Positions 2,831 to 30,209 of a stretch of DNA of 32,009 bases are shown here, piece after piece. This DNA comes from Streblomastix strix (lineage: Eukaryota). Made by a program: the position numbers and the translations under genes. Within the stretch, counting starts at the first letter, position 1. The number at the start of each line of letters is the position of its first letter. The stretch spans positions 1 through 32,009 of the forward strand of contig SNRW01000072.1 of assembly GCA_008636045.1 (NCBI GenBank). The letters run 5' to 3'. The notes under the pieces are model-generated. The model saw only the letters and a program-made list of their open reading frames with translations, was not told where the DNA came from and ran no database searches.

Positions 2831-3145
2831 ATGAAAAAAGAAGAAGGGAATATTATTGACATTATGCGAGGAATGGATTGTTCAATTTAAAATGGAAAAG
2901 CAGATACTAAAAATTATGATGGAGAAATGACGAACAATATGGATCAAATTCTTAAAGAAATGACTGGAAGAAAGAATAAAGCTATGGATATTGACAATGA
3001 CTTTAAAAAAGAAAAATTAAAGAAATTAAAAAAGAATTAGAAATCCTCGCCAACAAGTGGAACAGAAGATAATTCAAATAAATCTTTCGATATGAATGCA
3101 ATTGAGAGGTGGTTACTCGATGGTGATGCGGGATCATTTTTCTGA
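2831..3145 (+). CDS. Hypothetical 104-aa protein in the dispersed repeat
   Basis: With TAR=Gln it reads MKKEEGNIIDIMRGMDCSIQNGK...AIERWLLDGDAGSFF*. The frame and TGA stop are conserved in both copies. No family recognised. Confidence 0.4.
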
Positions 3146-3555
3146 TCATTTGGCTAATATGAATACTGATTTTTTACAATAAAATAATAATTATTCGAAA
3201 ATCCATTCTAATCGAATATTTCAAAGAATCCGATTATCCCGTCTGCCACAAATTTAATTTATAAATCACTTCATTTTGACGGATTTTATCAATGATCTAT
3301 ATATGAATTATACTATTAAATAACATATTCAGACTTATATTTACTGAATAATTTGACTTGCAACTTAAATTCCTTATTCCTCCACAACAAGAACTCTAAA
3401 TATCCAATCTATTAATTTATTTTCAAAATTATTTGATTATTATTGTTTTTTTCTAATAATTACTATAATTAATATTGCTCCAAACGTACTAACCAAGAAC
3501 AAATTTTTCATTTAAAATAAAGAATATGCATGAATTTAACTACCATTAAAACTAT
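2831..3555 (+). repeat. Dispersed ~725-bp repeat, copy 1 (104-aa ORF plus 3' non-coding region, ending in a TAT microsatellite)
   Basis: Highly similar direct copy of 23700-24423 (offset ~20869). Confidence 0.95.
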
Positions 3556-3602
3556 ATTATTATTATTATTATTAAGTAGCAAGCTGCACTAATCTCTTTT
3601 GT

Positions 3603-6600
3603 ATGTCTCACTAAACCAATACTTGTAAATTTTTGTATCAAGCTATATAGTTTTTTTTATATATTTTTGTAATATTTAAAACTCTATTCTTTCAGACTCT
3701 CGTAATTCAGTAATTGATCTAGATATGAATTTCAACAATTTGAAGGAGATATAATAAATCCAAATATATTTTACAAAAATTAATAATTTATTGAAGAAAA
3801 AAAGCGCACCATTGAAGAAAGTATGATTTTAATTCCATCTTCAACATTATTATCAATTGAAATGATAATTTTTTTATTAGAAAATTGAAGATTATTAGGG
3901 TAATTTTAGTCAAATATAATTGCAAGCAGAAACCGAAGTAGTATCCTGTGTGCATAAGCAAAAATCAATTTATTTATTTATTTATTTATTTTTTTTTAGT
4001 TCTTAGAAAAGAAGTTAAATTAATTGAGATTTTTACAGAAATATTTAAGACATAAAAATAAGTTATTGTAAGTCTTACATTGGATTTGATTAAATTTTTG
4101 TCATCCTGCGGCTGTATTGATGAAGTTTACCTATTTTTTATCTTAAATATTTTATACTATAATTATTACTTAGAATGTTATTTCGACTTCTATTGTTGAT
4201 TCTCTTATAGAAATTGCTGAGTTTATACATTTTTCTTTAGTTATTTTATTTTTATTTTTATTATTTATATTTTTTAGTTAATATTCAAGTAATGAGAGTA
4301 TTTTATAAGGTATATTAAATGTGATATTAAGTTCATTATCTTCTCCTAATGAGATGCACAGTCGTAATTTGTAAAGAACAGCTATTCTTGCATTTCGTTT
4401 GATGTATAATCGTTAGTAACGAGTTTCAGTACATGCTCAGTTCGTAGTTTAACACATCTCTAGATCAATTACTGATATTTTTATATAGTCTCACTCAGAT
4501 CAAAGTCATTAATCATAGGATTTAATTGATTAAGATTATTTGATGTTATTAACAGAATCAATTGATCTTCTTACTGGTAGTGGTCCTGCTTATATTTCTT
4601 CATCTTCTTCATCTTAACCTTCATCACAAACTTCATCTTAATTATCTCCTTTGTTTGGTTGTGAACCTCTTAGAGAAACATCTGGATGGGAACTTCTGCG
4701 TATTTTCATAACAGAAGACGCTTTATAAACACTTTGAAGATCCAATATTGCTTCAAAAGTAGTTGCAATCATTTCCTCTCAATTATGTCCGTTACTTATA
4801 GACTGTCTTGGACTTGATAGAAAAAGTATAAGAGCAGTTTCTGATGGAGGAAATCCAGCAGCTCTTTTGAGGCATCATTTAGCATTCACAATTCCATCTA
4901 TTTCTTTACCATAATAATAATAATAGTTTGGAGGGAGCAACAACCAAAGAATGTTGAAGTTGAATTCGCTTCCTAAAGAATCATCACACGATCCAGAAAT
5001 TGTACTTCCACATCTTATATCAGTTTCATGCATATTGATATATTGTATTGCTGATCATATTCCAAATGAAGGAGCAGTTCTCTTGGCTGGACTACTGGCT
5101 ATGACACTTCATAGTAGAGATATCTTAGAGCGCACAATTACAATGCGATCCATCAGGACTATTTTATAATCTCCATCTGTTTTACGTATAGCTTTTTAAC
5201 TTTGGGGAGGAGAATCAATAAATGGACCACTTTAATTATAGTAACTGGAGAATTTTGATAAAATTGAATGGAGTGCAATACAAGGATCTTCAAAACAGAT
5301 TAAATCAAGCCTATTTCTTCAATTAATGACTGCTCCAGCTCATGCATTGATTCAACAACTAAATAGCACTGAATCGCAAACTAATTAATCTCATTTATAA
5401 TCTCAAACTTCCTCTTCATATTAGAATTAACTTATTTCAACTTCTTTTTTGTCAATTGTCCTTCGCTTTTCATATCAACAATAATAACATTAATCATAAT
5501 TTTTATCTTAATCAAGTAATTCAATAAATGAAGATTAAGCCAATTCTTCTGTTTAGAATCTTCTTAAATTTAATGAAAGTCTAAATTTAACTTCACTTCC
5601 AGACATTTAAGAATAATATAAAGAACTTAGATATGATTATTCTCGTTCATATGACTCTTCTGCATTAAATTAAGCTTCTATTTCAAATTATACAAAGTTA
5701 GCATTTGATTCACTATTATTTGCAGTTCGATCTATTTTTATAATTGCTAATTAGGGCAATCAAGCTGATAAAGAATTAATTTAAGTATCAATAGCACCTC
5801 TTGTTGAAGGTTTATCATTTGTAGCTCACACAGTTGCAATTCCACTATCTTTGCTATATTTACTTTAAAATCCTTTAAATCGACAAAATATTCTCCCATC
5901 CTTATTACAACTTTCAGAATTATTTGCTTCACCAATAAGATTAAATTAATAAACATTTAATGTATCTCAGTTCAAATCTTCTTTTTTAACGTTTCAAAAC
6001 GTATTTCCTTTATCTTAATCACCAACTTTAGGATAATAATCACAATCATAAATAAATTCAATGTCATTATCAATTTAAGGAACCGATTCAACTCGATTAA
6101 TTTACAAATTACTTTAAAATTTGCAAATGATTGTGCAATCATCTAATCAGTTTTAATTAAATTCTTAGCATACAAAAGCGCTTTTAGCTATCTGTGCAAT
6201 TACTTCTCCATACCTTTTTACTCTTTGGGCAGTATTTCAACCACCAAATACAAATATACCTTAACCTACTTCAAACTTATTTCAGAAACTTTCATCCACA
6301 CATCAACAAACTAATTCATTGTCTCTTAAATGGATGCCGATGCTTATAAGAATTAATTTTTTATCTGGGAACGCAAATTCATTTTTATTGAAAGATATAC
6401 ACCCATCAAATGTTATTTTACCAATTAATGAATAATTAAACTAATAATCACCAGAGGATAGTGAAAATAAATTTGCAAAAATGAACAAGGACAAAATTAT
6501 ATTCAAATAGAATCAAAATATCCCTCAGAATTACATATCTCTAACTCCACATAGTCCACTTTCTCTTCAGAAACCAGCTTCATCAATATTCGACTTTGAT

Positions 6601-9600
6601 TGCATTATATCTGAAGCTACATTTATTGGATTTGAATGTTTATTTAGTTACATTAATTCTCACTATTCTAAACTTAATCGCTCAGATTGGAAGGTTGTAT
6701 TATATTCATTAATTCATACAGAACTTATTCTGATGCTTCACAAAAATAATGAAAAGAAAAGAATAATGAAACAACAGCTTCTTGCTTCATAAAATGCAGA
6801 TAATTTATATGACGAGAATGGTATGGAATATTATGATGAAGAAAATATAAAAAAACGTAATTAGCATATTTTGAAACCACAACAATCTCCAGGTAAACTT
6901 AACACTTTTCAATAATCATAAGATTCCATATTATCTGATTAAGATTAACTTTTAGTAAATATTAAGAATGTGTATAAGATTGGAAAGAGAATGGATAATG
7001 TTTCATTCACATCATTTTATTAGTCTTTGTGTGATATAGCTGCTCATATACTTAAAATTGACTCAAATACTGGTTTGAATACTTCTCAAATTGATGAAAA
7101 GAATAAAGAAGAAGTAATTAAAAAGAAAATTATAGGAAATCCCCAGGCAAATAACGATGAATTCACATTATCTTCTTCAATAAATCCATAATTTATTCTT
7201 CCATTTAATGAAACAGCTATTATAAATGCTGGAAATTAAGCTGTATCTTAATGCCATCTAAAAATAAAACAATAATCAAATTAGGGTTTTATTAAAAACA
7301 CACTTCTGTCTTCAGATTATAAATATTAGCTATAATTTGAATCTATTAATTCTATCTATTCATATTCTGACACCCCCATTCCAATGATACTATCTATTTA
7401 TTAGGATAAAACTAATAATGATGAATAACCTAATATTATTTAATATTAAGCGCGATTTGAATCTGATTATTTTAATGAATAATCCTCATTAATAACAGCT
7501 TCACCAAATTAACCATCATAAGGAAAGTAAGATTCATATCAATCTACTCCATAACCCATTACTTACTAACCTTCACTATTGCTACCATAAATAAATGCAA
7601 CTGTGGAAGCTAAAGATTTATTAGGAACTGGGATTGAATGCCTTCTTTCACATTTAATTAATATTCTTAATGAAAATCTTTTCCGTGGATCTCTAGTTGT
7701 AGAAACCGCTTTGATACCTCTTCTTCGTGAATTATTTAACTCTTAATCATAATCAATTAAAATTTTTGCATATGATATAAGTGTACTTCTTCTTTCATTA
7801 TTTTGTACATATATTCACTGCAATGATGTTTTTATTAGTCTTGAGTAGTATATTAATAAATCAATAGAAAAGATCAAGAATATATATATAAAAGATAGTA
7901 ATAATGAATAGAATAAAATTGATTTCACTATTGATGTAAATAATTTCGATACAAATATGAATTATTCATTTCATCCAGTTGATCATTAATGTATATAATT
8001 AATATTTTCACTTCTCACTGAACAACTTCAATCATCCAATTCAGAACTATGTAATAGAATCCAAAATCTTATTTATCCACTTCTCTAACTTCATTGTTCA
8101 CAATTATTTTATACAGATTTAGAATGGTAGGCACTTCTTCGTTTCCTTCGACCTCCCCAACGGAATCAAAAATATACATTTAATAGAACAACATCACCAA
8201 TATAATCTTAGATATAATAATCATAAAGTATTCAGTAGGATACAATACAAAATTAATAATCTAAATCCAATTCTTATGATATAAAGCAAAAAGAATCAAG
8301 TGAAAATTAGATTTAAAAAGATTTAGTTGTTGAAACTGTAAATAATCCAAAGATATTATACAAATCAAAACCAAAAGTTACTCTTAGTGGAAAATAATAA
8401 TAATAATAAGTATTAAATGCATCAAAAATATCTTACAATCTTTTTTCCATATTAAAATATGTTATAATTCATCATTCTTAACCAAATTTCTCTTCGTTTT
8501 CATCATTTGGTATTTCATCATATGTAACATCATTTGAAATCCTTTCCATTTATGCATAATAACGATTTTCTCTTCCTGTTGCATTAGAAGCTGTCGATCT
8601 TTTGTGGAATTTGGGAAATTCACTTGTAAATGTTGGAGAAGCACATGTAACATGTTAAAATTAAGAGAAAAATATGAATAAAGAAAAGATAAAAGAAAAA
8701 GGAGAATTGTTTGATAAAGAGGTTGAATAAAATAAAAATACAAAGGAAAAAATTATTTATTAATTTTATAACATGAATTATAAATGTGGATTGTGCGATT
8801 AAATACAATATAATCAAAATCAAATCCAAGATTAACAATAAAAATCTAATTCAGATTTCAGCAATGTTTAATAATTTGAAAAATAAACCTAATAATCGTC
8901 ACATAATTAGATTGAATGAATGTTTTTCTGTCCAACACTTGAATCCATTCGTACAGCTCTTACTTCTTTATTTGAAAGATTAGCTGGACTTTCAATGGAT
9001 GTTTGTATGGAAGTTAGAAGTGCTGCATTAATGACTCTAACAACTCTTCTTACAACACACAAAGAATTCTTTGCATAAACAGGAATGGCAGCAGTAACTG
9101 TAGCTGAATACATTTTACCCACTGCTTAAGCAATGTGGATGCAAGCTGAATCTGTTCAACTACTTACAAATGAAGATGAATATATGGTCGATAGATTCAA
9201 TGTTTCTTTATTGGATCAGAAAAGTGGAAATTAGAATAAATAATCTTTGCTACTTCAACAGGTTAATATGGATTTATAACGGAAATAGTGGGAATAATCA
9301 TTTTCAATGATTACAAAAGCAGCTGTCTTTCTTGTATGTTAAAATTTGCATGGATTTGTTTATGCTGATTCTTCATATTTAACCGATCGCAAATATTTGT
9401 CAAATACTAAATCACAATAAATTGTGAAATATTAATTTCCTTTTTAAAACACTAACAATAATTAATCTCCAGTTTAAGGAAAGATGTTTGGAACAATTAG
9501 ACCAATGTTAACAGCGTTTCTTCTAAATATGCTGATTCATGGTAAATTGGAGATGGCTTATTCAGCGGTAGATTCATTACATTAATTAATGAGCGTATCA

Positions 9601-12600
9601 TATTAAGTAATGCATAATTGTTCGAATACAGAAGAAATTGCACTTATTGGTATTGCATAATCTCTTTGGGATATTGCATGGGATGTTTTAGCCGGGTTTT
9701 CTCAATCTTGTACTAGATGCATTCACGATGAAAGCGTTGCATCTGCTTCGTCACTTGCTTATCGAGGAATTAGTTCAGCTAAAGCTTCATTATAAAAAAC
9801 GCTTGAAGTACTTTTCCATTCTTTTACAAATAGACCATTTTAATAATAAGAAGAAGATAAATGTAAAAATGGCAACTAGTTATTGAAAGAAAATCTTATA
9901 ATCCCTCAATCTATTAATGCAAATTAAAATTTTGAAGAGAAACCAATCTCTCAATTTAAAATAAGTACAAATAATATAATGTTTAATATGGATGAAAACG
10001 AAGAACAAAAATCAGAATTAAATTTGAGAACCAATACAGATGTTGAACAAGATAAAATCCAATATGTTCTTCCTCTTCTCTCAACAAAATGTGCACTTTG
10101 TGCCATTGCTCATCAAAAAGCCATGAAAGTACTCTTTTTACTCCTTCTTTGGGCTCCAAGGTAACATTCTGCTTATTAGATGGTATCATTAAGAGACAAG
10201 AAACTATTTAAGACAATTAAATAAAGAAATTTTAAAGACAAAGAAGACAAATTGTGCCAAACATTGACACATTACATGAAATTGCTCTACAATTTACAAT
10301 CTGTGCCCAATCTACAGTCACTATGCAAGAAACCAATATTTCTTTCGCACTTCTTTCACAGAATTATTCCAGATTCAAATCCACTTCACACACCATAACC
10401 TCTTGTCTTATTAGAGCTATTAAATAAATCTTTGGATAATTCATTAGAAACAGAGAAAATGATTTTGTATGTTAAGAAACGTAGAAAGAAAATGAAATAA
10501 TAAAATGGATATGAATCTTCAATTCGTTCATTTACACCGCTTCAATCATAGTCGCCTTCATAATAAAATATTCATTAATTACAATCCTCCTCCTCTTCTT
10601 AATCCTCTTCTTCTTCTTCTTCTTAATCCTCTCCATCTCCATCATCATATTAATCTACTCCAATTCATCCAATAAATCCATTTATTGCTTAATAACCACT
10701 TCATAATTCATCTTAATCTTCTCTCTCTAATATTTATAATTTTCATTCAAACGATAATATCTCTCCATCAATAAAATAATATGAGATACTGCCGTGTATT
10801 GGTATAAGTATTGTAAATCCTTCAGTTTACCTTCAGCAACTCCCAACAGCTGATCCAGCAACAATCAGTGAAACATTGAAAATAATAAATAATTTCACAT
10901 AACAAACTACTGGAGATAAAGAAACGGACTTAAATTTGAATTCTTTATAAGAGAATAACAAAGAAAATTTTGGTAAAACATAAGAAAATCGAGAATAAAT
11001 GAACAATTATTTTGCTCTAGATTCAGACAATGATTAATTGAATGCGTTAGATAGTTAAATATTCACCAATATAATAATCTTATCCACATTAACAGCTCTA
11101 ACAGTTCCTCCTCTTTATTATGTCTCATTTATTATTAATGACAATATTTCTCCACTACACACTTCATATACTCATCTCATTGGACCAAATCCTGTTACTG
11201 CAAATATCCCATACAAACCCCGAATGTTTCATTCTCAACATTCCTCTGTAATCACACCTTTTCCTTCACCTGCTTCCATTTCTTCTTCAATTACAATTAA
11301 TTCTTATAAGTATAACAATGACTAATAAATGAATACAAATTTTTCAATAACTTCATCCATTCAAGATTCAATTTCAAATTCAATTATTTCTCCTTAATTT
11401 TCTTCTTAATCTTCTGTATAATAATAGTAATAATAGATCTATACAAATTTACCAACTGCTTCTTTTTTTCCTGCTTTGCATACAACTGCAAATCTCCCCG
11501 TTTCAACACATAAACTATTTTTAAAAGATGTTCAATAAATTAGAATACCATTTGTTAGTCTCTCTACATTACATATAATTCACTATATAATTCTTCATGT
11601 AGTTGCAGAACAAAATAGAATAAAGATTAAGAAAGATGAGTCATCGTAAGATAATAAACAGAAAGGAATAAGAGATTAATAGTAAGAATAATAAAGTGAT
11701 GATGATTATTACGTTTAACCAAAGTGGAATTCAGTTTGGAATGCAGCTTCTAAATGCATTTGTCTTCTTATCAAATATGGATTAATGATTTTAGAGGCTG
11801 TCGAATGTTGGCATAGTAAATATGAATGGATGGAAATAATAGCTCAAGGATCAATAAAACAGATCAATGCAAATTAAGCTCAACATTCAACAATTTTTTT
11901 ATAGAATGAAAAGAATGAAAATTATCCAGACAAATAAGATTAACAACAAACTTACGCTTTTCCAAGTAACTTAGATAAATCAAAAAAAGATGTATTTACA
12001 AAATCTCCAAATTAAAATCAATAATAACTACAATCACCAAGAAACTCAAATTAAAAAATTCCTGCACCAACTTAATTATTTTAATAAGCACCGATTGGAT
12101 TCTAACAAACACCTCTTACATCAATTATTAATCCTACTACAAATGAATTAGGAAAAATTGATCAGGATTTTTTTATAGTTTCTCCTTAAAATTTATTTTT
12201 CTTTGACAAGAAAGATGTTATTGAGTTAAATTAAAACAAGCCTACAAATATAGACAATTAAGAATATATTATTCCCAAGTTGAACTCTTTTGGTCATTTG
12301 GAGAGTACACTTCTTGTGTCTCATTTCTTAACAGCCTGCAAATTTGTATCAACAGCTCTATCTGTAGTGACTGCTCTTGCTCCAATTATTCCCTCATTTG
12401 AATATACATAATTAATTTATTAAACTTTGAAACCTCATCTTTTCTACTTTGCTTCAGAGATTTCACATCCACTTTGTTTCTCGTCCAATGCAACATTAGC
12501 AGCTCTAAGATCAAGACTTATTATTGGTATTCTCCTTGGTTAGAATGAATTATTAAAACAAAACAATGAAAATGATTAATAATAATTAAATTAAGAGTAG

Positions 12601-14223
12601 AAATTAACATTGGAAGGATTGTTTAGGGATTTTGAGGAAATAATTTGCGTATTTTGGTCAAATTTTTTGAAATCTCATTCATAAGAAAAATAATAATCTT
12701 ATTCTGAGCCTACAAATATATAAAATTCGCAATTTCATAGAGATTTCTTTAATTAAGTTTTTCCTTTCATTTTATCATCTTTATCAAGCATCCACCTAAC
12801 ATCTTCTAATCTGCATTAAAATTATATCCATTCACTTTTTATTGATGGGGAGGAGATTTCTGAAGAAGAATCTCTATTGTACAAAGAATAGGCGAGAAAA
12901 ACTAAAAGAAATTTAAAGTAAAATAAACATATAGAAAAATTGAAGAAATTAATTCCAATTGAATCCAAAGAATAAACTTAATATAATAGCTATGAAAGTG
13001 ATAATATAGAATTTAATGAGGAGAATAAAAATAAAGAGTTTATATTAGCTAAATTAATAATGGAGAAGCGAAAATTTTCGAAATAATATATAAATGAAAA
13101 TAGCGCATCAGGAATTGCTAGCCAATCAAACTTACAATATAGTTAAACATAAACAATTCTATCATCTAAATAACAGGGAGAAGCACAAATAGAAAAAGAA
13201 GTGTTAAATTAAATAGATGATCGAAATAATTCGGATAGCAGTGAAAGCGATATTAAATATTGGAGCCTTGAAGAGTAAGAATAAGATGATTTTGTATTTG
13301 ATGAAAGTAATTCAGATGAAGAAGGAGTTATAAAAGAGTAAGAATAAGTCTCAATTAACCAGAAAATCAATTCAAATTCTTAACCATAAAAATTTTCTAT
13401 TTTAACTACACTTTCAAATCATAAGGAAAGTTTGAATCAGCTAAACGATATTACTCATCATTTGCACCAATGCATTTTTCACAAACTTCCTCTTGCTCCT
13501 TTATCTTAACTATGGCCACGCCAAGAACATGTTGAGTCTATATTGATTGATTCTATTAGCAAGAATTTTATCTATCCTTTTCTTTTTGCTGATTAAAGAG
13601 GAGAAAAAGATACAATTTAATTTCAAATAATGTATCGAGCATTGGAAATCCTCTAATCTCTTGCCTCTGTTTCAATCATAAATGAAGGTGAGAAGAATAT
13701 AAATTAAGGGATAAAAGAAATGAAAAGAAAACCCTTTTACAAATTCTCTTGGAATATATCGTTGCGAGCAATGTAGACGCTCGTAGAATTGCTTCTTGTT
13801 TGCGTGCAACATAAAGATTTGCATGATTAGAGTATTATTGCAGATGTGCTAGCATCGACTTGGCCGAAACTTGAACGAATAGTCAGTAAACATATGTTAT
13901 AGAGCATTCATATTGCAACTAGTTCTTCATCTTCAAATCATTCATAATTGATTCATTTTCGTGTTATTTCCAATGTTTTAAGTATATTGCTTTAATTATC
14001 AACCATCAACAGATCAAATAAAATAGAATCAAATTCTCTATTATTTTCACCTCTCATTCGACTTATGCACAAAATTACAATGCACAAAAGCTTATCTATT
14101 ACAAACGATAAACAATTTCACTAAATAGATAGAATGAAGTTGACTATTCTAAGAAAAATTACAATACTTTTGGTAAGATACAATTTCTATTAATAGAAGG
14201 AATAAAATATTTCACAGGAATGA
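3603..14223 (+). CDS. MON2: Mon2-like (Sec7/BIG-related DCB-HUS-HDS) Golgi/endosome trafficking protein, ~3443 aa
   Basis: Exons 3603-3624, 3696-3820, 3881-3947, 4000-4124, 4174-4220, 4278-14223 (sum 10332 nt, in frame). Motifs are colinear with Mon2: MHSRNLQRTAILAFRL, DYLMLLTESIDLL, GWELL...LCPLLI, SDWKVVLYSLIH, ALEAVDLLWNLGN, RLAGLSMDVCMEVRSAALMTL, RKQWEQS. In-frame TGAs at 4735 and 8917. Confidence 0.8.
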
Positions 14224-14407
14224 ACAAACCACTTTAATCTTTTTTGACATATACTTCAGTTAAACTCTAAAATATAAATTTTTTTTTCTAACTGATGTAA
14301 ATATTTGTTTGACACATCATTTATTTATTTAATTTTTTAATGGTTTAATAAAAAACTGACTATATCTTCTGAAAAAGGAAGTGTGATGATGAAATGAATA
14401 TTTATTA

Positions 14408-17400
14408 TCATCTGTGGTGTGATATATCCATTAGCTTTTTGTAATCTTGAGTCATTTTGCCTTAAGTACGATGAGATAGTGTTGAATTGACTAAACTGAA
14501 TACTAGATGTCCTTGCACGATGATATAGTGAATTGTGGATGCGAGAGCTGCTTCAGCAATATTAACACATGTAGCAGTATCTTAAAAATCAAGTTTGCAA
14601 AGTGTTGTCATTCTCTGTCGTAAACGCAACTTCTCTTACCTATGAAAAAGAATTTTGCTCTGAAAATTCATTTGTTGAGTATGATGCTTTTGTATAGTCG
14701 AATGTTACGTATTGTCCGGTTATTTCATTTGAGTTTTTTATTATGATTTTCCATCCACAGGTTTATCAATATACCCACTAACATCCCTCGCAATTTATTT
14801 ATCCTTGTCAGTCAACTTTGTTTTATTATTTATCTTTTCAAGTATAATCAAAATCTTTTCATCCTCCTTTTTGAATGTATCTCTTAATGTAATCAACATG
14901 CATCTACCTGCATCCTATGCATCATGTATCAATTTTGACTTCTTTCTCAACAAACCAGCTAATGTACCTTCATTAATACCACTAAAACCGCATTGCCATA
15001 CAGAATCTGCAAAGTGTATGATTACATCTAAAATTTGCAAATGTATTCCATCAAGGAATGTATTGCCGCTCAGGAGGTGAGCAGACATTCGTTGGAAGAC
15101 GAGGGGTAGTTCCAATAATTTTTCAGGAATAAAACTATCATCTAAAACTGCTTTGTGAATTTTAGAATGTAAGTTTCCCTAATATGATTGTTGATATTAA
15201 TGCGCATATTGAGAAGTGGGAGATGGAATATGAGATGATATATAAGTATTAGGTTATGAATCAGTCTGAAAATATAATTATTAAGCATTTGCTTATTATG
15301 TTTAATAACTATTTCGACTTAATGTTATACTTGATCTTCGCTTTAAAACCTTGTTCTTTACTGAAGCATTCTCAGGACTCTTTAAAGATGATCCTGATAT
15401 TTCTTTAGTTATGAGTGGTTATGTATCTTATACTTAATGACCTGCTTCATTATCTTCATAAAAATCTTATTGTATTTTTTTATTAATCACTTCTGCTGTA
15501 TTTTTCCCAGCATTTTACTATTAATTTCGAGGTGATTGTTGGCCAATTCCTTAATCAGATTTTAGATCACCAATCAGTTTTTCTTTCTCTTTTTTTCTCT
15601 TTTCCAGACGATCACGCATTTTCTCACGCATTTATTATGCACGCTCTTTCCTAATATGTAATTTATCCCTTTTCTTTTCATGCTCAATCTGAATAGCGGT
15701 TATTTCTTTTATTGTTCTCTCAACAACTCTACAACAGCTTCGCGTATCTGGAGGAAGAAGCTCTCGAAGTCGATTTGAGTTTCTGCAACTGGTGCTGTAT
15801 ATTAACATTAATGATATTCCATTAAAGAGATAAGCCATAAGAAGGAAAACAAATGAGAAAGGAAGGAAGACAGTGAGTGCTGTACTTGAGAATCCAACTA
15901 AATAATTAGCTTATTCTAATATTTAATTATTCATCCATTAAACTGCACCTACAACGTCATTATCAATACTTGACAGAATAAACTTGAAATAGTTACTTTT
16001 GTAATCCAAAGGCTTTATGATATCTTCGTTTGTTTCTTAAGAACCAAGAACCTCCAAATATATTCTTAATCGTGAAAGTAATTAAGACATTCCATAAACA
16101 TAATCACCAATATTCCATATCCTTTAATTCATTCCTAATTCAGAGTCTAATTACTAATCTCCATCATTTGAAGAATGCATTAACGATTCTTATTTTCTGA
16201 ATAGAATAAGTTCATTCACATTTGAAGAAAAACGTCTCATCATCATTTTTTTATCATCAAATACTATATCATTTGTGAAACTTGAATCTCCAATGTTTCC
16301 ATATAAATTATATTCATTATCATTCTACTTACTAAAATGAGTTCGTATATGAAGAGCTTGAATATAATCAGCTAATCTTGTAAGAAGACCAACTAATACA
16401 CGAGGATCATCACTGATATGATCACTTGAATTCCAAACTGGATTAGTTGCAGTTGGGAATAATATACGATCGAATGTTGCGATAGTTGGTGAGTCAGGAA
16501 AGCATGCACGAATGAGTACGCATTGCATAGTACGCAATATTGGAATTCTGAAAGAAGATACAATTAATGATGAGGGTATTGAACTAAATCGCATGTCTAT
16601 TGCTAAAAACATACACATTATTGCAACTGTGATTACTAAACAAATCAGTATTGATGTGATTGAAAGACTTATAAATGATAAAGATATAGGCTAAGGGAAT
16701 TATTTCTTGAATGTTATCCGCAATTCATTAATTTCTTCATCAAGTCTTTATGCCCACTTTGAATCATCAATAACTCCTTAAACATAAATTTCTGATTCTG
16801 CTTTTTGTGATAACTCTATTTCTTTCAATTTAACTTCATTAGGTATTTTTGCTTTTTCTTTTTCATCAATTTCTTCTGGTAATTCTTTATCTAAATTATT
16901 TGATTATACTTTCTCCAATAAATTATTAATCGTTTCATTCTAAACACCACTTTATTTTAAATTGAGCAGTCTTAATAGTTCTTCATTATAAGTTTATAGA
17001 GTTTGCTGATTTATTAGAGCTTATTGAAGTTATTATTAAGTCAATACTAAATTTTAAACAATTTATTAGTTGTTGATATAAGGTTATTGAACAGATTGAG
17101 ATTATTCAATAGATAAAGATTAAACAAATTATTAAGGATAAAGACCAGTAGAATTGGGTTATAATTACTGAGATTATTATAAGAAATTGGTTTAATTTGG
17201 TGCTTACAATACATTTATTAATTAACTCTAAAGAGGATCGAATCCAACACCTTATTATTATTATTATTAAATTGGAGTTATTTATGTAAGATTTGGAGCA
17301 ACAGATTGTTATATTTATTGTCCATATATCTGTTGCTATTAATTTTATAATTGCAAGTAGGCTTATAATGGTTATGAATTTTGTATCTAAGCTAAAAATT

Positions 17401-20400
17401 ATGGGTCGATACGTTCTGATCCTTATGGTTATAATAATGAATTAGCTGCTGGACTATGTGATTAAGATATATCATTGGGATTATGTGATATTTAATCTTA
17501 AGCCAGTTTTAAACCAACTATTCTTTCATTCACCTGCATTTGGTTAATATCATCAATATTTCTTTTTCTTTCACTATTTCCATTTCTATTGGATATCTTT
17601 CTTTATTTACTTCTTCTTTTCTCTCTCCTATCATATGATGAACTGTCAGAGTCATCAGAATATCTTCTTCTCTTCCTATCACTGTAATGTCTATTTCTTT
17701 CATAATAAGAATCTGAATCAGAATCATCATCAGAACTGTGGCTTCTTTTTCTTCTATCATCACTATCTTCACTTTAATCACTTCTGTCATTACTTCTTCT
17801 TCTTCCTCTTCCTTTTCTTCTTCTTCCTTTTCTTCTACTATATTCACTGCTCTAACTTTGAGAAGTTGAAGATGAGTCAGTTGATTCACTGAGTGATCTT
17901 CTGCTTCCACTTTTATTCTTTCTTCTTCTTCTTCTTCTTTTTCTTTTTCTTCTTCTTCTTGATTCATCTGAACTGTCAGATGAACTTTAATCATCAGATT
18001 AGTCATCCTTATGTTAATTATCATTAATTATTTACTTCTACTGTATGTCTGGATGAACTGAAGCTTTAATATTTTAATTTGATATTTCTTTATTCTCAAT
18101 TTTTGCAATATTTTAATCTTTTTAATTGTTATTTGTTTTTATTATAGAATCATCCATTTAACCAGTTCCTTAATTAACTTAACGAATTTATTATTTTTCT
18201 TAAAATATATTTTAAAATGGAGTTTATGATGTTGGTTGTGATTATTCTTATTATGCTTATTGTGATGATTCTATTAATTTATATTATGAATCATTCCATG
18301 AATGAGAAAGTCTTTATAAAGATTTGGCATTAATGTTTGAAGATTATAATGATGATTAGTTTCCCATCTGAACAGGAGTCATTGAAGATAAAACTTTATC
18401 ACGATTAACTTTATGTAAAGTGGTTGAATTATATTTTTATGCTTCTTTCTTAACTTTAGGTTGTATTAACTTCTCATGCTTCTACTGAGATTGTAAAGTA
18501 GTTGCTTCTGAAATATCCAGATTCTTTAAGCTATTTTATTGTGAGATTAATGAATTAGGTTTAAAATTTTGTTTGAATTAAGATACTGTCAATTTCTTAT
18601 TAACTTATCCTAATCTATTGGTAGGAATGAATAATTATTTGTTAGTATCAAGGTCATGATCTTATAGTAATGATTCAGCATTTCCTTGTTGAGTATCTTT
18701 TGCTGTTTCTTGCTTTGTAATGTCTGCTGCTATTTCTTAATTTTTTACAAATTCATTTAATTTTTTTGTTATTTCTTCAATTGTTTATTCATTTACTGGA
18801 TGAATATCTTCCATTGCTTTCAAATTCATCAACATTGAATCGTGCCTTGAAATAGCAGCTCTTCTAAATGCACTTCTTGATTTACTAAACATTTAAAATA
18901 TAGAATATCCATATAATAATAAAAGACCTATTATGGCTACTCCAGCTCCTGTTAGAACTATTGCAATTGAGTTTATTGGGGCATATCTAGCTAATTCCTA
19001 AGTAGTTAATAAGCAATTCACTACTGCTTTCTTTGCTGACTCCATTACAGGAAGAAGGGTATTGAATACAATATATAGGAGATCTTGTCTATAAGTTGGA
19101 AGATCAATCTAAGGACTTGTTGAACTTCCTAAAGTCTTACATCTGTTCACAAGTTAATTTAAAGCAGTTATTAGATTAACTCTCATGGAGGCTTAAGAAA
19201 TGACTTTCTTGTTATCTGTATCAAAACCGAATTCATATATCTATATTGATTAAACTTCAAATTCCTAACTATCTGAAGTTAAGGAATATATCTATGAGGT
19301 TACACCTTCTACTAATTTTGCATTGTCCCTTAAAATCTGAGCAAAACTAGTCATTGAAGCAATAAAAGGCGCATCTTCATCATTGATAGTAGATTATTAA
19401 ATGTTTATTTTTATTTATTTTTAATTTGAATTATTTATTGAGTCATTACTAAAATTGTAATCAAATAAAACATTCTCTTTATTATTATAATTAGATTTAG
19501 AAAGTTTAGATTAGTGTAATTTTTCTTATTACTCAATACTACCAATTGAATATTATCCAATACTATTATCTCCATTTTAGTTAGAATCTTAAAAAATGGA
19601 TTTATAGCGAAATTAAGGATGATCAACATTCGACCATATCCAATTAAACTATTCATGAAAGTGATATCCCATTGCAGCATATCCCATTCTTGCAATTGAA
19701 TCTGGTACTGATGCCACTTTTTATAAATTAATTGTGAGTTAATAAAACTAAGCACATGTATTGAAGTGAGTGGCACTGGATACAGCTATGAATATTGAAT
19801 AGAAAATATATGCAAGAGTAGTAAGAAGGAACAATGTCAGCATAGATCTATCAATTAAACTATATTTTTTCAATAACACATTTGGATCTAATGTAACAAG
19901 AAGCCTCTTTGTATTCCATCTAGGTTTTGATTTAGATTGTAGTTTAGATTGAGAAAAATCATCATTATATCCACTCTTTTATAAATCTTATTCATTTTGA
20001 TTATTTCCTAGATTCTCTTCTGTCAATAATCTATTAGCTTTGATTAAAAGTACATCTGCAAGCTCTTAATCATTGAATATCTATCTAAAGAATGTAGAGA
20101 AGAGAATATAAAGATTCTAATCTTATGGATGTGTTGACATTTATTCCTCATATTCGTGAAGTGCTGCTCTTTCTTACTATTATAATCTTTCAACAGACTT
20201 TCCAAGATGCTTAAAGTTAACAACATTTTCTGATGCCATTCGCCAAAATTCTTTTAGTGCAGTAATTGAAAGATTATGCAATTCAATGGCATGTTTTAAA
20301 TATGTACCTTTTTATGACTAAGATTATGGAGATTAAATCTCTTCTTCATCATCTTACTCTCTTTTTCCTTCATCTTTTGTTTTATCTGAAGATTACGCAC

Positions 20401-23400
20401 TCAATAACAATGAAGGATTCTTTTCAATTTAATTTGTTGAGCTTTCCTTTCTCTTTAGATTATTAACTATTCCAACTAATGAACCCCATTTCTTCTTTAT
20501 TTTATTTTCTCCTTATTTTTATACATTAAATTTATGAGGATCCTGAAGCGTATTAGAATTCTAGTCTTTTGTGGTGGATTCTTCTTCAATTAGTGGAAGG
20601 ATATCTGGATTATTGGGATTTGATGCTTGATTGATTTGCACTGGAGTAAACATTTGTCCAAATTTAGCCATTTTTGCTTTAGATCTGGTTAATGTCATAT
20701 TTTCATATTCTTTATTCAAATCTACTGGACTTGATTGAGCACTAATTGTAAAAAATTATTCTTTGTCTTTCTCAGGAGTATGAACTAACGGAGATGAAAA
20801 TATTTATTATATTCTTTAATCTTGATCTAATTCTTTATTTTTCTTCGTTTTATCAATTTAAAGTTATTTATTTGAATTTTATCTGATAGTACCACCATTA
20901 AAATCTATTTCAGAGTTCGATTAACTAATTGATTCTTATTCTTATTCTTTCTTTGCTAAATACTCAAGCATATACTTTTAATTCTCTCTCTCGTTTGCTT
21001 ATTCTTTATTTCTTTTTTCTTTTTCTTATTCACTTTATTCTTTTAAAAGTTATTGCATTATTTATTCTCCTTCTTTGTCAGCTTCATCATATTAATACTA
21101 ATCAGTTACATTTTCATTTGATGTTTCTTATATCAGATTCTTCTCAAAAGAACCTCTCCTCTTTCCTTTTGATTTATTATCAAAAAGATTTAAAGAATTT
21201 GCTTCATTGTTTTATGATGTATCCGGAGAAATCATAAAATCATCTTATAATTATAATTGTAATTATTAATTTTGAAGAGAAGATTTAGAAACAGATTGAT
21301 TCAAGGATTTCTTAGCTTTGAAAGATACAGACTTTGGCTAATTTTGTGGGTCCGGTGATACCCCTCTTTAATCAGAAGCGTAACTTATCTCGCTGTCAGG
21401 ATTAGATTTCTGCATTGAATATTACTACATTCTTGAAAGATTTGCTCGTGAAGCTTGTTTGCTATTTCCAAACTTATGCATTCTCATCAATGTACCAGGA
21501 ATTTCAGTTTCATCAAAAGTTGACAGGCGTCTATTATCTCATTATACATATGCTTATTGAGGAACATGGAGTAGACTAACTGGTTATTAGAGAAAATCTC
21601 TCTTTTTTGCTAATTCTTATTGTGTTCTAATTTTATATTCTTATTAAAGCTTTTATATTGTTAACTAAACACTCTTATTCTATTCATCTGAACCTTTCAA
21701 TGGATTATCTATTCCTGTAGTATATACAATTACATCCATCTCTTTTTCTATTCCAATTCCACTTTAACCATCGTCCAAAATAATTTCATTTGGCTTCCGA
21801 GGAACATCAAATGCATCTCCTTCATATTATGTAATGCCTTATGCTCTCTAAAGACAATAAATATTCAATCTTAGAATGAAATGGGGTTTAGCTATTTTGC
21901 ATCTCTGAAGTGCAATATTAGCAAGAATATGATCGTGAACGAAGTGTGATAAGAAATTTGCATAATCATAGAGTAAATCTGCATTGCATTAATACTTTCA
22001 TATTGAATGCATATAGAATATGTTGGCAAATGAAAGGTAGGAAGACAAGAAAGTCCTATTTGATCTACGAAATTATCTATATTATATAAAACGGAGTGAC
22101 CTTTCTACGTTATTTGGATTTCTGATCTTAGGAAGACTTTGAGTAAGACGTGGAATTGCTCTAATATAATTACTTTTAGCCTTGTATGCAAATATATTTG
22201 GATTTAAATTGTTTGCTTTATTAAGAGTTCGGTCAATTTCATTTTAATGAACATTGTCTTCTATTTAACTAGAATCTGGCATTATAGTGTTAACATTTTA
22301 AGCATATGGAAATGATTTTTATAATTTCATCTGCCTAAATACTTAATCATGTTTGGATTATGTTTCTTATGTAGAGTCTTAATCCTAAAGATACATTTTA
22401 ACTTTATCACCAAGAGAAGATGTTTTCTATTCCATGGCAGCACTGTATATAGCAGAAATACTAACCAAAGGAGATCCATCCTTATTTAAGCACCAATGTT
22501 TCTATTCAATCTTGCGAATAATAAAGAAGAGAAAAACAGATGCTACACCTGCACATACTAAACCAATTGCCCATAATAATGAAAAGGTAATAATATTTGT
22601 TTCATTCTTAGATGCTCCCGATGCAAAATATGCTAATTCAGCAAATGCACGAATCAATCCAAATAGTAGATATGGTAATGCTGAGAGATAATTTCCTATT
22701 ATATGATAATATGGTTGTATAACAGTATATATAAAAACAAGAAGAGATGATGTTCCAACAGTTACAAAAAATCTCCAAAAAGGCCAATCGAATAGAAATC
22801 TCATTGCAAATACAACTCCAAATAATAAAAATCTATCAAATGCGATAATTTAACCTTATTTAATTGAAAAAATTCCTCCTTTCTTTGAATGTCTATTATG
22901 AGTAGGAAATGAAGATCCTGTTGCAATAATAAGTATGAATGGGAGATTAACAGCTATGGATACAATAGCTGATACTAATTGAAGAACACTAGAACCAAAG
23001 CATTCATCTGTTCCAGATGTAATAATTGACTTTTAATCAGGTATAGGTTTATAACAATCTATTGCTGGTAGGGCAAGGTTAATCAAAGGTATATAGAATG
23101 TTTAGAATATAATTATGAATGTTATTTATAATATTCTCATAAAGAATGGATGATATCGCATAATCTTTTAATGAAATGAAGCAAATAAAATCAGCCACAT
23201 TATTAGACACAGAAGTAATATGAAGATGCCAATAGGAAAGTATAGAGAGTAGTTGCCCAAGAGGAATGAATATGAGGAGAAACTGATATAACCTCCAATC
23301 TTTGACAAAGTACTCTATACAAATGTTACTGGATTAATCCAATATGTAGACAGTGACAGGAGGAAAATGCATTTCAAAACAAAATTTGTAATTTACCATT

Positions 23401-23598
23401 TGATGTTTGGTCTTTTAAGCTGTTATAAATAAAATAAAATATATGAAAAATATATGATATTTTCAAATAAAAATATAATAGGCATACAGGATAATAAAGT
23501 GGAAAAAAGATGCTAAAAATAATTTTATCGCTTTTAGAAAAAATTCCCTCGTCTGCAGCTCCTTGAATTTTATGTTGTTGAACGTTTCCACTAGGCAT
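14408..23598 (-). CDS. TmcB/TmcC-like large multi-pass membrane protein with TPR-like segments and a possible hemerythrin-like C-terminus, ~3040 aa
   Basis: Exons 23598-23488 and 23419-14408, with a GT..AG intron at 23487-23420. It has an N-terminal TM bundle (FGVVFAMRFLFDWPFWRFFVTVG..QPYY..GN), LPKIRNPNNVERSLRFIQ, TPR-like DLLYDYANFL and ALKEFWR..YEEQMSTHP..IFND, further TM pairs and long low-complexity inserts. In-frame TGAs at 22000-21998 and 21541-21539. Confidence 0.75.
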
Positions 23599-23699
23599 GG
23601 TCAAATTAATTTAATTTTTCTTACAGGGAAAAGTAGAAAATAAGAATTAAAATGTAAAAAAAATAAAACTAATTTTTATTTCATCTTTAAAAATAAATG

Positions 23700-24421
23700 A
23701 TGAAAAAAGAAGAAAAAAATATTATTGACATTATGCGAGGAATGGGTTGTTCAATTTAAAATGGAAAAGCAGATACTAAGAATTATGATGGAGAAATGAC
23801 GAACAATATGGATCAAATTCTTAAAGAAATGACTGGAAGAAAGAGTAAAGCTATGGATATTGACAATGACTTTAAAAAAGAAAAATTAAAGAAATTAAAA
23901 AAGAATTAGAATCTCTCTCAAACAAGTGGAACAGAAGATAATTCAAATAATTCTTTCGATATGAATGCAATTGAGAAGTGGTTACTCGATGGTGATGCGG
24001 GATCATTCTTCTGATCATTTGGCTAATATGAATACTGATTTTATTGCAATAAAATAATAATTATTCGAAAATCCATTCTAATCGAATATTTCAAAGAATC
24101 CGATTATCTCGTCTGCCACAGATTTAATTTATAAAACATTTCACTTTGACGGATTTTATCAATGATCTATATATGAATTATAGTATTAAATAACATATTC
24201 AGACTTGTATTTACTGAATAATTTGACTTGCAACTTAAAATCCTTATTCCTCCACAGTAAGATCTCTAAATATCCAATCTATTAATTTATTTTCAAAATT
24301 ATTTAATTATTATTGTTTTTTCTAATAATTACTATAATTAACAATACTCCAAACACACAACTCAAGAACAATTTTTCATTTAAAATAAAGAATATGAATT
24401 AATTTTGCTACAGTTAAAACT

Positions 24422-24423
<2 letters not shown>
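23700..24423 (+). repeat. Dispersed ~725-bp repeat, copy 2 (ORF 23697/23700-24014)
   Basis: Direct copy of 2831-3555 with the same ORF length and stop. It lies between the divergent TmcB-like and transportin genes. Confidence 0.95.
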
Positions 24424-24480
<57 letters not shown>

Positions 24481-24504
24481 ATTAATATTAATATTAATAT
24501 TAAT
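24423..24504. repeat. Compound AT microsatellite (TAA)n-(TAT)n-(ATTAAT)n
   Basis: Directly visible. The TAA and TAT arms are mutually complementary. Confidence 0.95.
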
Positions 24505-24587
24505 TCAATTAACAAATTTAAGATTATATTTAAAACCTCATTTAAAAATACGTATTAATTTATTAATTTTTTAAAGAAAAAGAGTCG

Positions 24588-27500
24588 ATGGCCTCGTTTT
24601 CTATTGATGAAACTTTGTTGCAATAAATACTTACATAGATTGAACGTGCTTCCACTCCAGATACTTCAGTTCAATAATTTGTTATGAAGGTTTCTTTAAT
24701 AATTTTATTTCAACATATTTTATTAATTTTATATTTATTCTGTTAACTTGAATGGTTTACATAGTATTTTGAAGAATAGAAAATAAATCCATTTTTTCCT
24801 ATTTATTTGTGTTTTATCATATTTGACTGTCGTCTTCCTGTTGATCATCGAAAATTTGCTGATACTCAACTAAAGAATATAATTGGCACCAAATATTTTA
24901 ATGAGGAGGTGCGATAATACTGTTTATCAAAATTGTTTGATGCAATAGAAAATGAGAATTAATTTACTAGATAATTGGCTGGAAGATTAATTGGTGATTT
25001 TTTTAATTCATCAAGTATGCATAAAACTAATTATTTTAAATGTTTTAATCATTATATTAACTGATAATGCAAGATAATGAAGAGTAAGCAATCATACTTA
25101 ATTATTTAAAGGATCGTATATTTAATGATAATTTAATTATCTTAGAAAGTTGCCTCTATTCTTTATCATATGGATTGGATATTTGTTTTTCCTTAAAGGA
25201 TTCAGAGCTTTAAGAATAAATAATTTTGACTTTCCTTCCTTGACTTATCATTATCGCTCAATAAGCAAATTATAATTTTGAAATAAGATATTTTGCTTTA
25301 GAGATTATTAAAATATTTATTAACGATTTAAAACCATCTCTTATATTAATGGTTTAAGATATTATTACTGTTTGCTATTTATTTTAATATTTATAATGTC
25401 TTTAATTGATATATTTTTGAAGATGCTTCTCGGAATTGAACTAAATGACCAGTCTAATATTAAATTTCATATTTAAATAGTATAGTGTTTTGAAGGGTTA
25501 ATAAAAGAGTATAAAATTTCTCAATTTCAGGAAATAATATCAAAATATTCAACATAAATATTAACATATATTATTGGATTAATGCAGCAACACACTCATA
25601 TTACAATTCCTTCTTCTTAGTCATCTTCAATCACATTTCAAACATCTTCATCAAATTAGTATTCAGATGCAAAATAAGAAGATGATCTACTTAAATATAC
25701 ATGTAGCTTTTGTTCAAATCTTTTAATTCATAAATCTATAACTAATAGCGTTCAATATAAAAATGTCATTAAAACGATTATTCCAATTATAATTCTTAAT
25801 ATGCGGTTGAATAGAGGAGAAATTGAAGATATTTAATCTTCAGATGAATTTATAGAAGAATGGATATTAGAAACAGAAAGTGGAATTCATAAATCTAAAT
25901 TTGAATAAGAAATATCTCTTATTGAAGGAAATGATGAAGAAAGTCATTTATTTGATGAATATTCTGAAGATGTGACATTTGATGTTATGAATATGGGAGA
26001 ATGGACACTTAGAAATGCTGCTTGTGAAATATTGAGAGATGGAATATTATATTGTAGAAAAACATGGGCAGATTCTCTTATTACTACTTTGGGGTAGATT
26101 ATGGTTCAAATTATAATATATAAATTAAATTAAATTATAATATAATATAATATAATATAATATATCATTTATTATTCTGAATATTTGCACATATTCATAT
26201 TAAGACTCAAACGCAGCATCTAATTAATGAAAGCAGTTAGAATAGCTCAGAATTATTAACATCTGGTGAAGATTCAAATAACGATTGGTTTTTAGTTGAA
26301 GCAGCCATTCTTGCATTTGGTATATGTTTCAGTAAATGTGTTAAATACATCTAAAATGAGCATATTTCTGTTATTGTGAACTGGATTATACAAATTGGGG
26401 AACAATCCTCAAATATTTTCCTCAAACATCGTTCAATATGGATTTTGGGGCGTCTTTCATCCTGGTTATGTCCCCAATAATCTTAAAAACAAGGAAATAT
26501 TGATGAATAAACTTTATTATTTGATAAGATTAATATATTTGATTAACATGAAAAAAGATATGATTAAAGTGAAATTGAATTATTAACAGATAGTATAAAT
26601 TAAGAAGAAGAAGAAAACGATGAATTTGATGATGAATTTAGTGAAGATGATGATGAAGAAAGGCCTTTACATAAAATAATGCTACATTCTTAATCTAATG
26701 AACATGTTTAAAAAGCAATAAATTTATTGGTTATTGGAATGTAGGACAAATGCAGGAAAGTTTATGAATTACATTTATTTATATTTGTATTTAATATTAT
26801 TATTTGTTTATTTTCATGATACTTTATATTAATAGATTTAGCGTCAATCATGCTATTCTCTTTAAAAGATAGTACACAATTATAGGAAAGGAATTTAACC
26901 CATAACACAACCTCTAATTGCACAAATAGTATCTCTTATTCCTCATTATGGCACTCGTTCACTTGAAAGCCTGTTTGAATTATTGGATGAAATTATTATT
27001 CAATCTCCAGACACTTTTGCAGAAGATCAATCTGCATTCGGAAGAATGCTTTAACTTGCATTAGAAACTATGATCTTCAGCACATAAAAGAAAAATGGTA
27101 TTAACAAAAGCAAACTTTCAATAAATGTTGCCAATTTCATTAGTACTCTTATTGAAAATGTTAATTTCATTGAAGTCTCTGCTGCAGAAAATGCAGCCAA
27201 TATTCTTATTATTTTTATCTAAATTCATTTGTAGAGATTAAATTTGCTTGAATCTTAATCAGAGATGCATTTTGGAAGATTAAATGATGATTTAGATGAT
27301 TTAAACACTTTTGAGATGAGTGATACAATTGCTGCTCCAATAATTACACTCGATCATATTGTAGTTAAATGTAAAATATCGGTTATTTCAATCTTGCATA
27401 ATACTTAATTTATTTATAAAGTCCTTGTTCCATGTCTTCAACATAATAATAATCATGTTTTATGTGAATTATTTATTCTTATTGGTGATATTGCAAAAAT

Positions 27501-28398
27501 CATACCTCAACTATTTTTTGCAGTTAATGACAGTCAAACTTAAGCAATATCTTTAAATAATGACAAAGGAATCCAAATATGTATGGAATTAATTCAAGAA
27601 ATGATTAAACACATTTCTCCATAAAATGAAAGAAAGAAATCTGAAAGTGCGATATGGGCAATTGGACGACTTATTCTTATTGGGAAGGATCGTGCTATTC
27701 CAAATCCTGAAGATAGATAATCTCTCCTTGAACTATTATTGCCCCTATACAATCTAGATATTCATACTCCTCCTAATTATATCCAAAACTAATAATCCAT
27801 TTCTAATACATAGGATCATTTATTAAGATTTGGAGGACATGCAGAGAAAGATCCTAATATTATCTCATTTCTTGTAAATGTTTCTGAGATACTTTGTATA
27901 TTAACCATCTTCTTTACAGTTGAAACTGTTTAATTTGTTTCAAATTACTAATTAGAATTGGATAACTAAGATATTAATACATTTAATTCTTCTCAAACAA
28001 TGATTAAAGATTCATAAGGATCTGATTAGAAGATTTCCAAGAGGATCAAACGAGTAAATTAAACTCGACCTTCCTGCATAAAACTTTGGCTTGACTATTT
28101 ATCTGCATTAGAAGACAATGAGTCTGATAACAATGAAAAGAATATTGCCTTCCGTGGATTATGTTTATCTGTAAAATAATTCCCTTAGATATTTATGCCC
28201 TACTTGTATTCACTTATCAGTGCTATTGGATCATATAAAATCAATCCATAGGATGATTCTGAACTTACTGCAGATATAAAATTGATTTTACTCAATTTTT
28301 AAGCTTAGTTCAAACCATAAGAATGGGAATTATTCTATTCTTTCGTATCTGGGAATATTTAATATAGATTAAAATCATTTTTTGATTTTGGAAAGTGA
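24588..28398 (+). CDS. TNPO1: Transportin-1 / importin beta-2 (Kap104) homolog, ~1148 aa
   Basis: Exons 24588-24689, 24765-25014, 25074-25369, 25423-26103, 26205-26759, 26836-28398 (3447 nt). Colinear motifs: LQQILTQIERASTPDTSVQ, GEWTLRNAA, DWFLVEAAILAFG, SIWILGRLSSW, AIWAIGRL, DNNEKNIAFRGLC, and the C-terminal EWELF..IQYRLKSFFDFGK*. In-frame TGA at 25241. Confidence 0.9.
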
Positions 28399-30093: not shown

Positions 30094-30209
30094 GTTTAAA
30101 TGTGAACCGTTCTAATAGATCGTTACGATGCTATAAGATCCATTTTTCATTTTTATTTTATTTACGAAGTGAAAAGATTAAAAATGTGCCAAATTATCCT
30201 AATTTACCA

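Follow-up and report, generated by a model that had tools for sequence, protein, structure and literature searches.

Internal in-frame UGA codons in intact genes of Streblomastix strix suggest that UGA probably serves as both sense and stop codon

Nuclear codes that lack a dedicated stop codon are known from Blastocrithidia, one Amoebophrya and a few groups of ciliates. In karyorelict ciliates (Parduczia; NCBI table 27) and in Condylostoma (table 28), UAA and UAG (UAR) encode Gln and UGA encodes Trp, as shown by peptides and ribosome profiling in Condylostoma; UGA is the main stop in karyorelicts, 3' untranslated regions (UTRs) are short, and internal UGA usage is 0.042% in Condylostoma and 0.120% in Parduczia (PMC4967479). 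A bifunctional Q/Q/R code, with UAR as Gln and UGA both terminal and internal opposite Arg-type columns, has been assigned computationally to seven spirotrich ciliates, including Sterkiella, Stylonychia, Tetmemena, Paraurostyla, Uroleptopsis and Uronychia, in a study that calls bifunctional codons rare outside ciliates (PMC10089648). Outside the ciliates, nuclear codes in which all three stops have a sense meaning are found in Amoebophrya ex Karlodinium and in Blastocrithidia, where UAR encodes Glu, UGA encodes Trp, is frequent (0.72-0.85%) and never terminates, and UAA is the stop (PMC12153298). The published code of the oxymonad Streblomastix strix, a protist of the termite gut, is NCBI table 6, with UAR read as Gln (Keeling and Leander 2003, as cited in PMC13002328 and PMC11687900) and UGA taken as a pure stop. 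Here we describe a 32,009-nucleotide (nt) stretch of S. strix DNA, contig SNRW01000072.1 of assembly GCA_008636045.1 (hereafter the window, meaning this whole stretch), in which five TGA codons lie in frame within three genes. We conclude that UGA is probably both sense and stop in S. strix, whatever residue it encodes. The specific reading that we favor, to which we give a probability of roughly one half (0.48), is that internal UGA is translated, more probably as Arg or Gln than as Trp, while UGA near the poly(A) tail ends the protein.

The window is AT-rich and, when read under table 6, holds five genes (Table 1). Its 8,180 codons include 466 TAA, 97 TAG and 5 TGA, and UAA and UAG behave as Gln, with a CAA/TAA exchange between populations at position 20638. 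All three canonical stops are found in frame within intact genes of the window. Across the 3,315 codons of the last Mon2-like exon, the ~3,040 codons of the TmcB-like gene and the 1,149 codons of the spliced transportin gene, the sole stops are the five internal TGAs and the terminal ones, and beyond each internal TGA the frame is uninterrupted by frameshift. The shortest distance from an internal TGA to a true stop is 975 codons (2.9 kb). Only 5 in-frame TGAs are present in ~7,500 codons, as compared to 115-170 expected at off-frame or non-coding rates, and this scarcity is not due to chance. All five genes end in TGA, which in the transportin and eL22 genes falls at the conserved C-terminus. 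The original prediction, made from the letters alone, had described the five in-frame TGAs with continuing frames, their distance of at least 2.9 kb from the true stop and the lack of a shared flanking motif, all of which agree with our frame analysis, our flank comparison and the assemblies described below. Its assignment of a terminal TGA to every gene also holds, with the transportin and eL22 stops backed by matches to protein ends, except that the stop of the fifth gene is corrected to 30212-30210, the first in-frame TGA (30369) being intronic. Specifically, no flanking motif is common to the five TGAs, and the flanks of internal and terminal TGAs are alike. There is also no hairpin 3' of the five internal TGAs (z -1.04 to +0.36), and downstream folding is the same for internal and terminal TGAs.

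All five in-frame TGAs are real. They are carried by an independent assembly of X1, a DNA run that is possibly the source sample of the window. This assembly exhibits five differences to the window over 4006-17785, none of them at a TGA, no differences over 24513-26107, and two differences over 20600-23742 where, among the places listed, neither TmcB-like TGA is changed. Two further runs were compared, X2 from a different sample and X4, which is DNA from another study; the runs with matching DNA include termite gut metagenomes. X2 was recognised as cDNA by a template-switch adapter (at the eL22 start), poly-T ends and spliced introns, and X5 and X6 are also cDNA as judged by their contigs. One X2 contig of 2,443 nt (depth 31) joins 23619-23488 to 23419-21156 with the TmcB-like intron removed and four differences to the window, and it contains both TmcB-like TGAs unspliced and, at contig level, unedited. 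Spliced cDNA covers two of the five TGA sites, both in the TmcB-like gene and both retained; no RNA contig extends over the Mon2-like or transportin TGAs. The eight introns in the window (three seen spliced, five inferred) have a GC content of 0.10-0.19, and splicing is unlikely for each of the five TGAs because every frame-keeping GT-AG stretch that would excise a TGA has a GC content of at least 0.25. The expectation that these codons are fixed, unspliced and unedited thus stands in DNA for all five and in spliced cDNA for both TmcB-like sites, while partial editing may still occur because contigs hide minority edits.

Sequence differences between populations were used to assess whether the genes are functional. 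X4 is ~2% divergent on the pieces listed, and among the 40 rows listed there are 33 differences to the window, all 3' of at least one TGA, of which 22 are synonymous and 24 in third position. The synonymous share expected by chance is 0.21-0.22 (p 3e-7), and these listed X4 differences correspond to a dN/dS of ~0.14. Note that this count leaves out rows of X2, rows found in X1 only and a pair of X1 rows at 17729/17733, and keeps four X4 rows at depth 8-26 that are possibly from other organisms. A duplicated non-coding element in the window provides a measure of decay, with 41 substitutions and 3-7 one-base indels between its copies. Five TGAs arising through neutral decay need ~220 substitutions, from which 15-38 frameshifts are predicted, and none is found in 22.5 kb (P <=4e-7). 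At 80% likeness, the X1 pieces listed include no diverged second gene copy. Given the synonymous bias and the absence of frameshifts, the three TGA-bearing genes are under purifying selection past their TGAs and are very probably not pseudogenes, as the original prediction held for Mon2 and transportin.

These observations bear on a group of explanations, together given only a very small chance, that treat the genes as pseudogenes or the TGAs as errors of amplification or assembly, as parts of cryptic introns, as UGAs changed to UGG by A-to-I editing, or as selenocysteine codons. An artefact has to be considered inasmuch as the window likely derives from amplified few-cell DNA (X1 possibly being its source), the Mon2-like and transportin TGAs are seen in X1 alone, and contigs drop minority edits. 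The TmcB-like TGAs are nevertheless shared with cDNA of another sample, and this, together with the zero frameshifts and the synonymous bias, largely refutes an artefact or pseudogene origin for the TmcB-like gene. Cryptic introns are opposed by the lack of any intron-like stretch. As for selenocysteine, which oxymonads are said to make (PMC10703272), there is no Cys among 24 homologs in the column aligned with the TmcB-like TGA at 22000, and the window has no match to Rfam at E 1.

A different possibility, and one that we regard as rather improbable, is that UGA is still essentially a stop, with leaky premature stops fixed by drift and a few-percent near-cognate readthrough sufficing for low-abundance proteins. 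In-frame TGA makes up 0.061% of codons, and its five occurrences make it as rare as the rarest sense codon, CGG. This usage does not exceed the noise that ciliate Pfam counts show for true stops, with a maximum of 0.09% (10.1101/2022.04.12.488043). The sites also fit the commonest mutational sources, with one-step paths of 30-57% from TAA and 3-7% from TGG, and UGA is the leakiest stop in yeast, at ~8% in a [PSI+] reporter (PMC13192750). Yet two genes contain two TGAs each, so that few-percent readthrough would leave <1% full-length product; three of the five window genes are affected, selection persists 3' of the TGAs, and no readthrough motif or hairpin is present.

Mapped poly(A) sites, available for two genes, give 3' UTRs of 38-42 nt (eL22) and 76 nt (unnamed gene), and the stops of the convergent Mon2-like and TmcB-like genes are 184 nt apart. 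All five internal TGAs lie >950 codons from the stop as compared to 26 of 52 TGGs (p 0.04, with a threshold picked post hoc), and they are confined to very long genes, with none in eL22. These distances also bear on the very unlikely explanation that the genes are split, with separate polypeptides made either from short mRNAs of their own or by re-initiation past each TGA. An ATG does follow TGA 8917 directly, and the X2 contig ends at 21156, which would suit such a model. The other four TGAs are 17-86 codons from the next Met, the codons after TGA 22000 retain family homology within one helix pair, and both TmcB-like TGAs are on one cDNA contig. Split genes would furthermore need 3' UTRs of at least 850 nt, when the two mapped transcripts have <80 nt.

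Regarding the residue encoded by internal UGA, the evidence comes from this one window and its five sites, of which only the TmcB-like TGA at 22000 could be aligned. The TmcB-like protein contains a TPR_TmcB domain (PF25474, E 1e-11) and has 52 homologs, of which 24, all from oxymonads, cover this site and are ungapped around the TGA. Their residues are K12 R4 H3 Q2 A1 M1 T1, with no Trp and no Cys. Held-out residues in such columns, obtained by aligning the query with 22 long homologs (the rows are related and the counts not independent), were Trp in 0 of 161 cases, Arg in 65 of 516 (13%), Gln in 35 of 416 (8%) and Lys in 199 of 607 (33%). The S. strix protein itself has Gln 6 times, Arg 3 times and Lys 3 times in 19 such columns. 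Profile odds at the TGA are 2.0 for Arg, 1.9 for Gln and 0.33 for Trp, or ~6:1 for Arg or Gln over Trp. In addition, weak support for Arg comes from the S. strix paralog model P0038, which is not marked partial and whose end directly precedes a column with Arg in 47 of 50 sequences. Given a dual meaning, the residue evidence would make Arg the leading candidate, although at less than even odds, with Trp less probable, Gln unlikely, and another or a mixed residue improbable. An all-Glu column opposite the TGA at 21541 was discarded, an insertion having been forced into alignment there, and other short paralog models (P0024, P0029, P0033 and others) were set aside because their ends are uninformative on the residue. 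Pfam and PDB gave no alignment across the Mon2-like or transportin TGAs; the predicted fold of transportin exon 3 (pLDDT 69) has five helices with only generic helical matches, and that of the Mon2-like piece (pLDDT 38) is unusable.

The original prediction had likened this code to table 27, in which UGA encodes Trp as it also does in Condylostoma and Amoebophrya, and in S. strix such a reading would involve a tRNA-Trp(CCA) whose anticodon stem may be shortened. We consider this unlikely. In the cases with experimental support the residue is Trp (PMC4967479; 10.1101/2022.04.12.488043; PMC12153298), there too only a small share of UGG has turned into UGA (PMC4967479), and Trp is one step from the Arg codons AGA/CGA, so that it could fall in a basic column. 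Set against this are the basic or polar column at the one alignable site, the absence of Trp both there and among held-out residues, and the profile odds. Moreover, the three Trp-dominated TmcB columns all use TGG, no Trp-conserved column tested uses TGA, and with 5 TGA to 52 TGG the A-ending share in the TGA/TGG box is 0.09 as compared to 0.67-0.87 in six other boxes. The Trp identity is thus not borne out.

Several points weigh against a sense UGA read as Arg or Gln. The evidence is one window with five sites, one of them informative for the residue. The X2 contig of the TmcB-like gene breaks off at 21156 with no tail, an A-rich tract following 120-150 nt later, and beyond it there is only a 151-nt piece (17635-17785, depth 3.8), so that this mRNA is not covered full-length. 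The state of X4 at the TGAs is outside the rows listed, and the synonymous bias could partly predate the TGAs. With respect to the residue, two of the six TGGs of the TmcB-like protein also face aromatic-poor columns, and because of this a single site is still compatible with Trp. The P0038 stop is inferred from its annotation, and many S. strix paralogs look decayed. The Mon2 position matching TGA 4735 is presumably hydrophobic, which would favor Trp, and the transportin-1 position matching TGA 25241 is presumably basic; the two point in opposite ways. Finally, S. strix has UPF1 (PMC1501061), which weighs against sense UGA because UPF1 should punish premature stops. With these points considered, translation through UGA is still probable as judged from sequence, selection and cDNA together.

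A mechanism for the favored reading, in which internal UGA is translated as Arg or Gln, can be proposed. The release factor eRF1, with UAA/UAG recognition lost, may hold UGA weakly and would win at UGA only when poly(A)-binding protein is close, as in the model of PMC4967479. Away from the end of the message a near-cognate tRNA would outcompete eRF1. One candidate reader is a tRNA-Arg that reads CGA/AGA, using a first-position mismatch by the same route as tRNA-Gln taking UAR; another is the abundant UAA-reading tRNA-Gln, using a second-position mismatch. UGA decoding would probably be costly, which may hold sense UGA at 0.06%, in very long genes and out of eL22.

Among described systems, the published S. 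strix code concerns the same organism and likewise has TAA/TAG as Gln and genes ending in TGA, and it differs in its treatment of UGA. A 2026 study (PMC13002328) gives TAR=Gln for S. strix from alpha- and beta-tubulin only and in its accessible parts is silent on UGA; a rare sense UGA would be missed there because the codes were inferred from these two tubulins. The accessible parts of PMC11687900, PMC8629427, PMC13192750, PMC1501061 and PMC10703272 treat oxymonads for UAR=Gln or other topics only, and the literature searched, which did not extend to the 2003 code paper, the 2019 genome paper or supplements, yielded no account of UGA used as sense by oxymonads or any other metamonads. The spirotrich Q/Q/R code is similar in having UAR=Gln and in having UGA both terminal and internal, with internal UGA there facing Arg-type columns and here, at one site, a basic or polar column. 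It is found in another supergroup, which would make an S. strix code independent of it, and in S. strix Arg is favored but not separated from Gln or Trp. With karyorelicts and Condylostoma, S. strix shares UAR=Gln, short 3' UTRs, UGA as the main stop (karyorelicts only) and an internal UGA usage that lies between those of Condylostoma and Parduczia (0.04-0.12%). S. strix differs in that its testable site argues against Trp and in being an intron-rich metamonad. The earlier judgment that this DNA does not look karyorelict was correct. Blastocrithidia and Amoebophrya ex Karlodinium resemble it in using all three stops as sense in a nuclear code outside the ciliates, although the UGA of S. strix is rare and the sole stop seen, in contrast to Blastocrithidia. 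Overall, a context-dependent UGA in S. strix has probably gone unrecognised so far, and Trp is not the best fit for its residue. As to the suggestion of an independent and unrecognised code, its dual UGA is probable, and the Trp identity is the part that is not supported. Tentatively, and at somewhat less than even odds, we propose that S. strix has a nuclear code without a dedicated stop that evolved independently of those in ciliates, trypanosomatids and dinoflagellates. Internal UGA would be read as Arg (Q/Q/R) or even Gln (so that all three stops are Gln), the code would be in an early phase with sense UGA rare and restricted to long genes, and public gene models would be broken throughout.

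Table 1. Genes and internal in-frame TGA codons of the window
Feature	Position	Strand	Details
Mon2-like HEAT-repeat gene	3725..14223	+	small 5' exons, then last exon ~4278-14223; stop TGA 14221-14223; label presumed from motifs
TmcB-like gene	14408..23598	-	exons 23598-23488 and 23419-14408; stop TGA 14410-14408; intron spliced in X2
Transportin-1 (karyopherin beta2) gene	24588..28398	+	six exons inferred; stop TGA 28396-28398 at conserved C-terminus
eL22 gene	28922..30093	+	no internal TGA; terminal TGA
Unnamed gene, 3' part	30210..31242	-	stop TGA 30212-30210 after spliced 97-nt intron
Internal TGA	4735..4737	+	Mon2-like gene; 3,162 codons to stop; next Met 71 codons downstream; in X1 contig
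Internal TGA	8917..8919	+	Mon2-like gene; 1,768 codons to stop; ATG directly 3'; in X1 contig
Internal TGA	21998..22000	-	TmcB-like gene, first TPR-like helix pair; retained in spliced X2 cDNA
Internal TGA	21539..21541	-	TmcB-like gene, insertion absent from homologs; retained in spliced X2 cDNA
Internal TGA	25241..25243	+	transportin exon 3, codon 174/1,149, within predicted helix; in X1 contig

The genes themselves exhibit several additional features. The Mon2 label, presumed from motifs, was confirmed by no tool. Those homologs of the TmcB-like protein that were named (20 of 52, plus four cluster members) belong to Blattamonas, Monocercomonoides or S. strix or derive from unnamed metagenomes. 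Its C-terminus (14408-15100, minus strand) is His-rich and hemerythrin-like, and one Blattamonas homolog is annotated as a putative hemerythrin. All ten S. strix-named TmcB models (P0014, P0029, P0033, P0035, P0038, P0040, P0045, P0053, P0054 and P0057) have 134-469 residues, with three of the ten not marked partial and on 6-7-kb contigs, and seven of the eight best named Blattamonas/Monocercomonoides matches have >1,000 residues; internal TGA may be one cause of the short S. strix models. P0022 and P0023 are oxymonad-type TmcB fragments from JGI metagenomes, and their DNA is absent from the metagenome contigs scanned. Transportin has an IBN_N match (E 0.0017), and its last 99 residues align to the very end of Transportin-1 (E 0.005). 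Three of its five introns inferred from DNA (25015-25073, 25370-25422 and 26104-26204) end in AAG instead of YAG. The database model P0001 (25801-30093), named ribosomal protein L22, fuses the 3' two-thirds of transportin, beginning 3' of its internal TGA, to eL22 via false introns, when cDNA puts the eL22 start at 28917. The eL22 protein has a Lys-rich repeat extension of 279 residues (28922-29758), part of which is also matched by a PDB eL22 of 299 residues (4v6w), and an insertion of 15 nt at 29331 is present in X2. Transcripts of the convergent eL22 and unnamed genes have poly(A) sites that fall within ~4 bases (30131-30135).

A 745-nt element is present in two copies that are ~94% identical (2831-3574 and 23700-24442), one directly upstream of the Mon2-like gene and the other between the divergent TmcB-like and transportin genes, with an X1 depth of 63-70 as compared to ~20 elsewhere. 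An X2 joint from 23619 to 23777 (CT..AC) suggests that the TmcB-like 5' UTR is spliced from inside this element. A decayed tyrosine recombinase fragment lies at the contig start (309-740; PF00589, E 0.0002). No tRNA genes were found within the window, a word-index homolog search with the TmcB-like N-terminus and eL22 gave no match, exact look-ups of window ORFs found no entry, and no related loci were found among the viral, metagenome or genome contigs scanned.

If true, S. strix would provide Metamonada, its branch of eukaryotes, with a first code lacking a dedicated stop, and with it one more independent origin, in an organism that is rich in introns and has kept UPF1. It would test whether lost UAA/UAG recognition together with short 3' UTRs suffices for position-dependent UGA, and a residue other than Trp would lend independent support to the Q/Q/R code inferred by computation. 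It would also mean that the table-6 gene models behind gene-absence claims are truncated, as is the case for the P0001 transportin that starts after the TGA.

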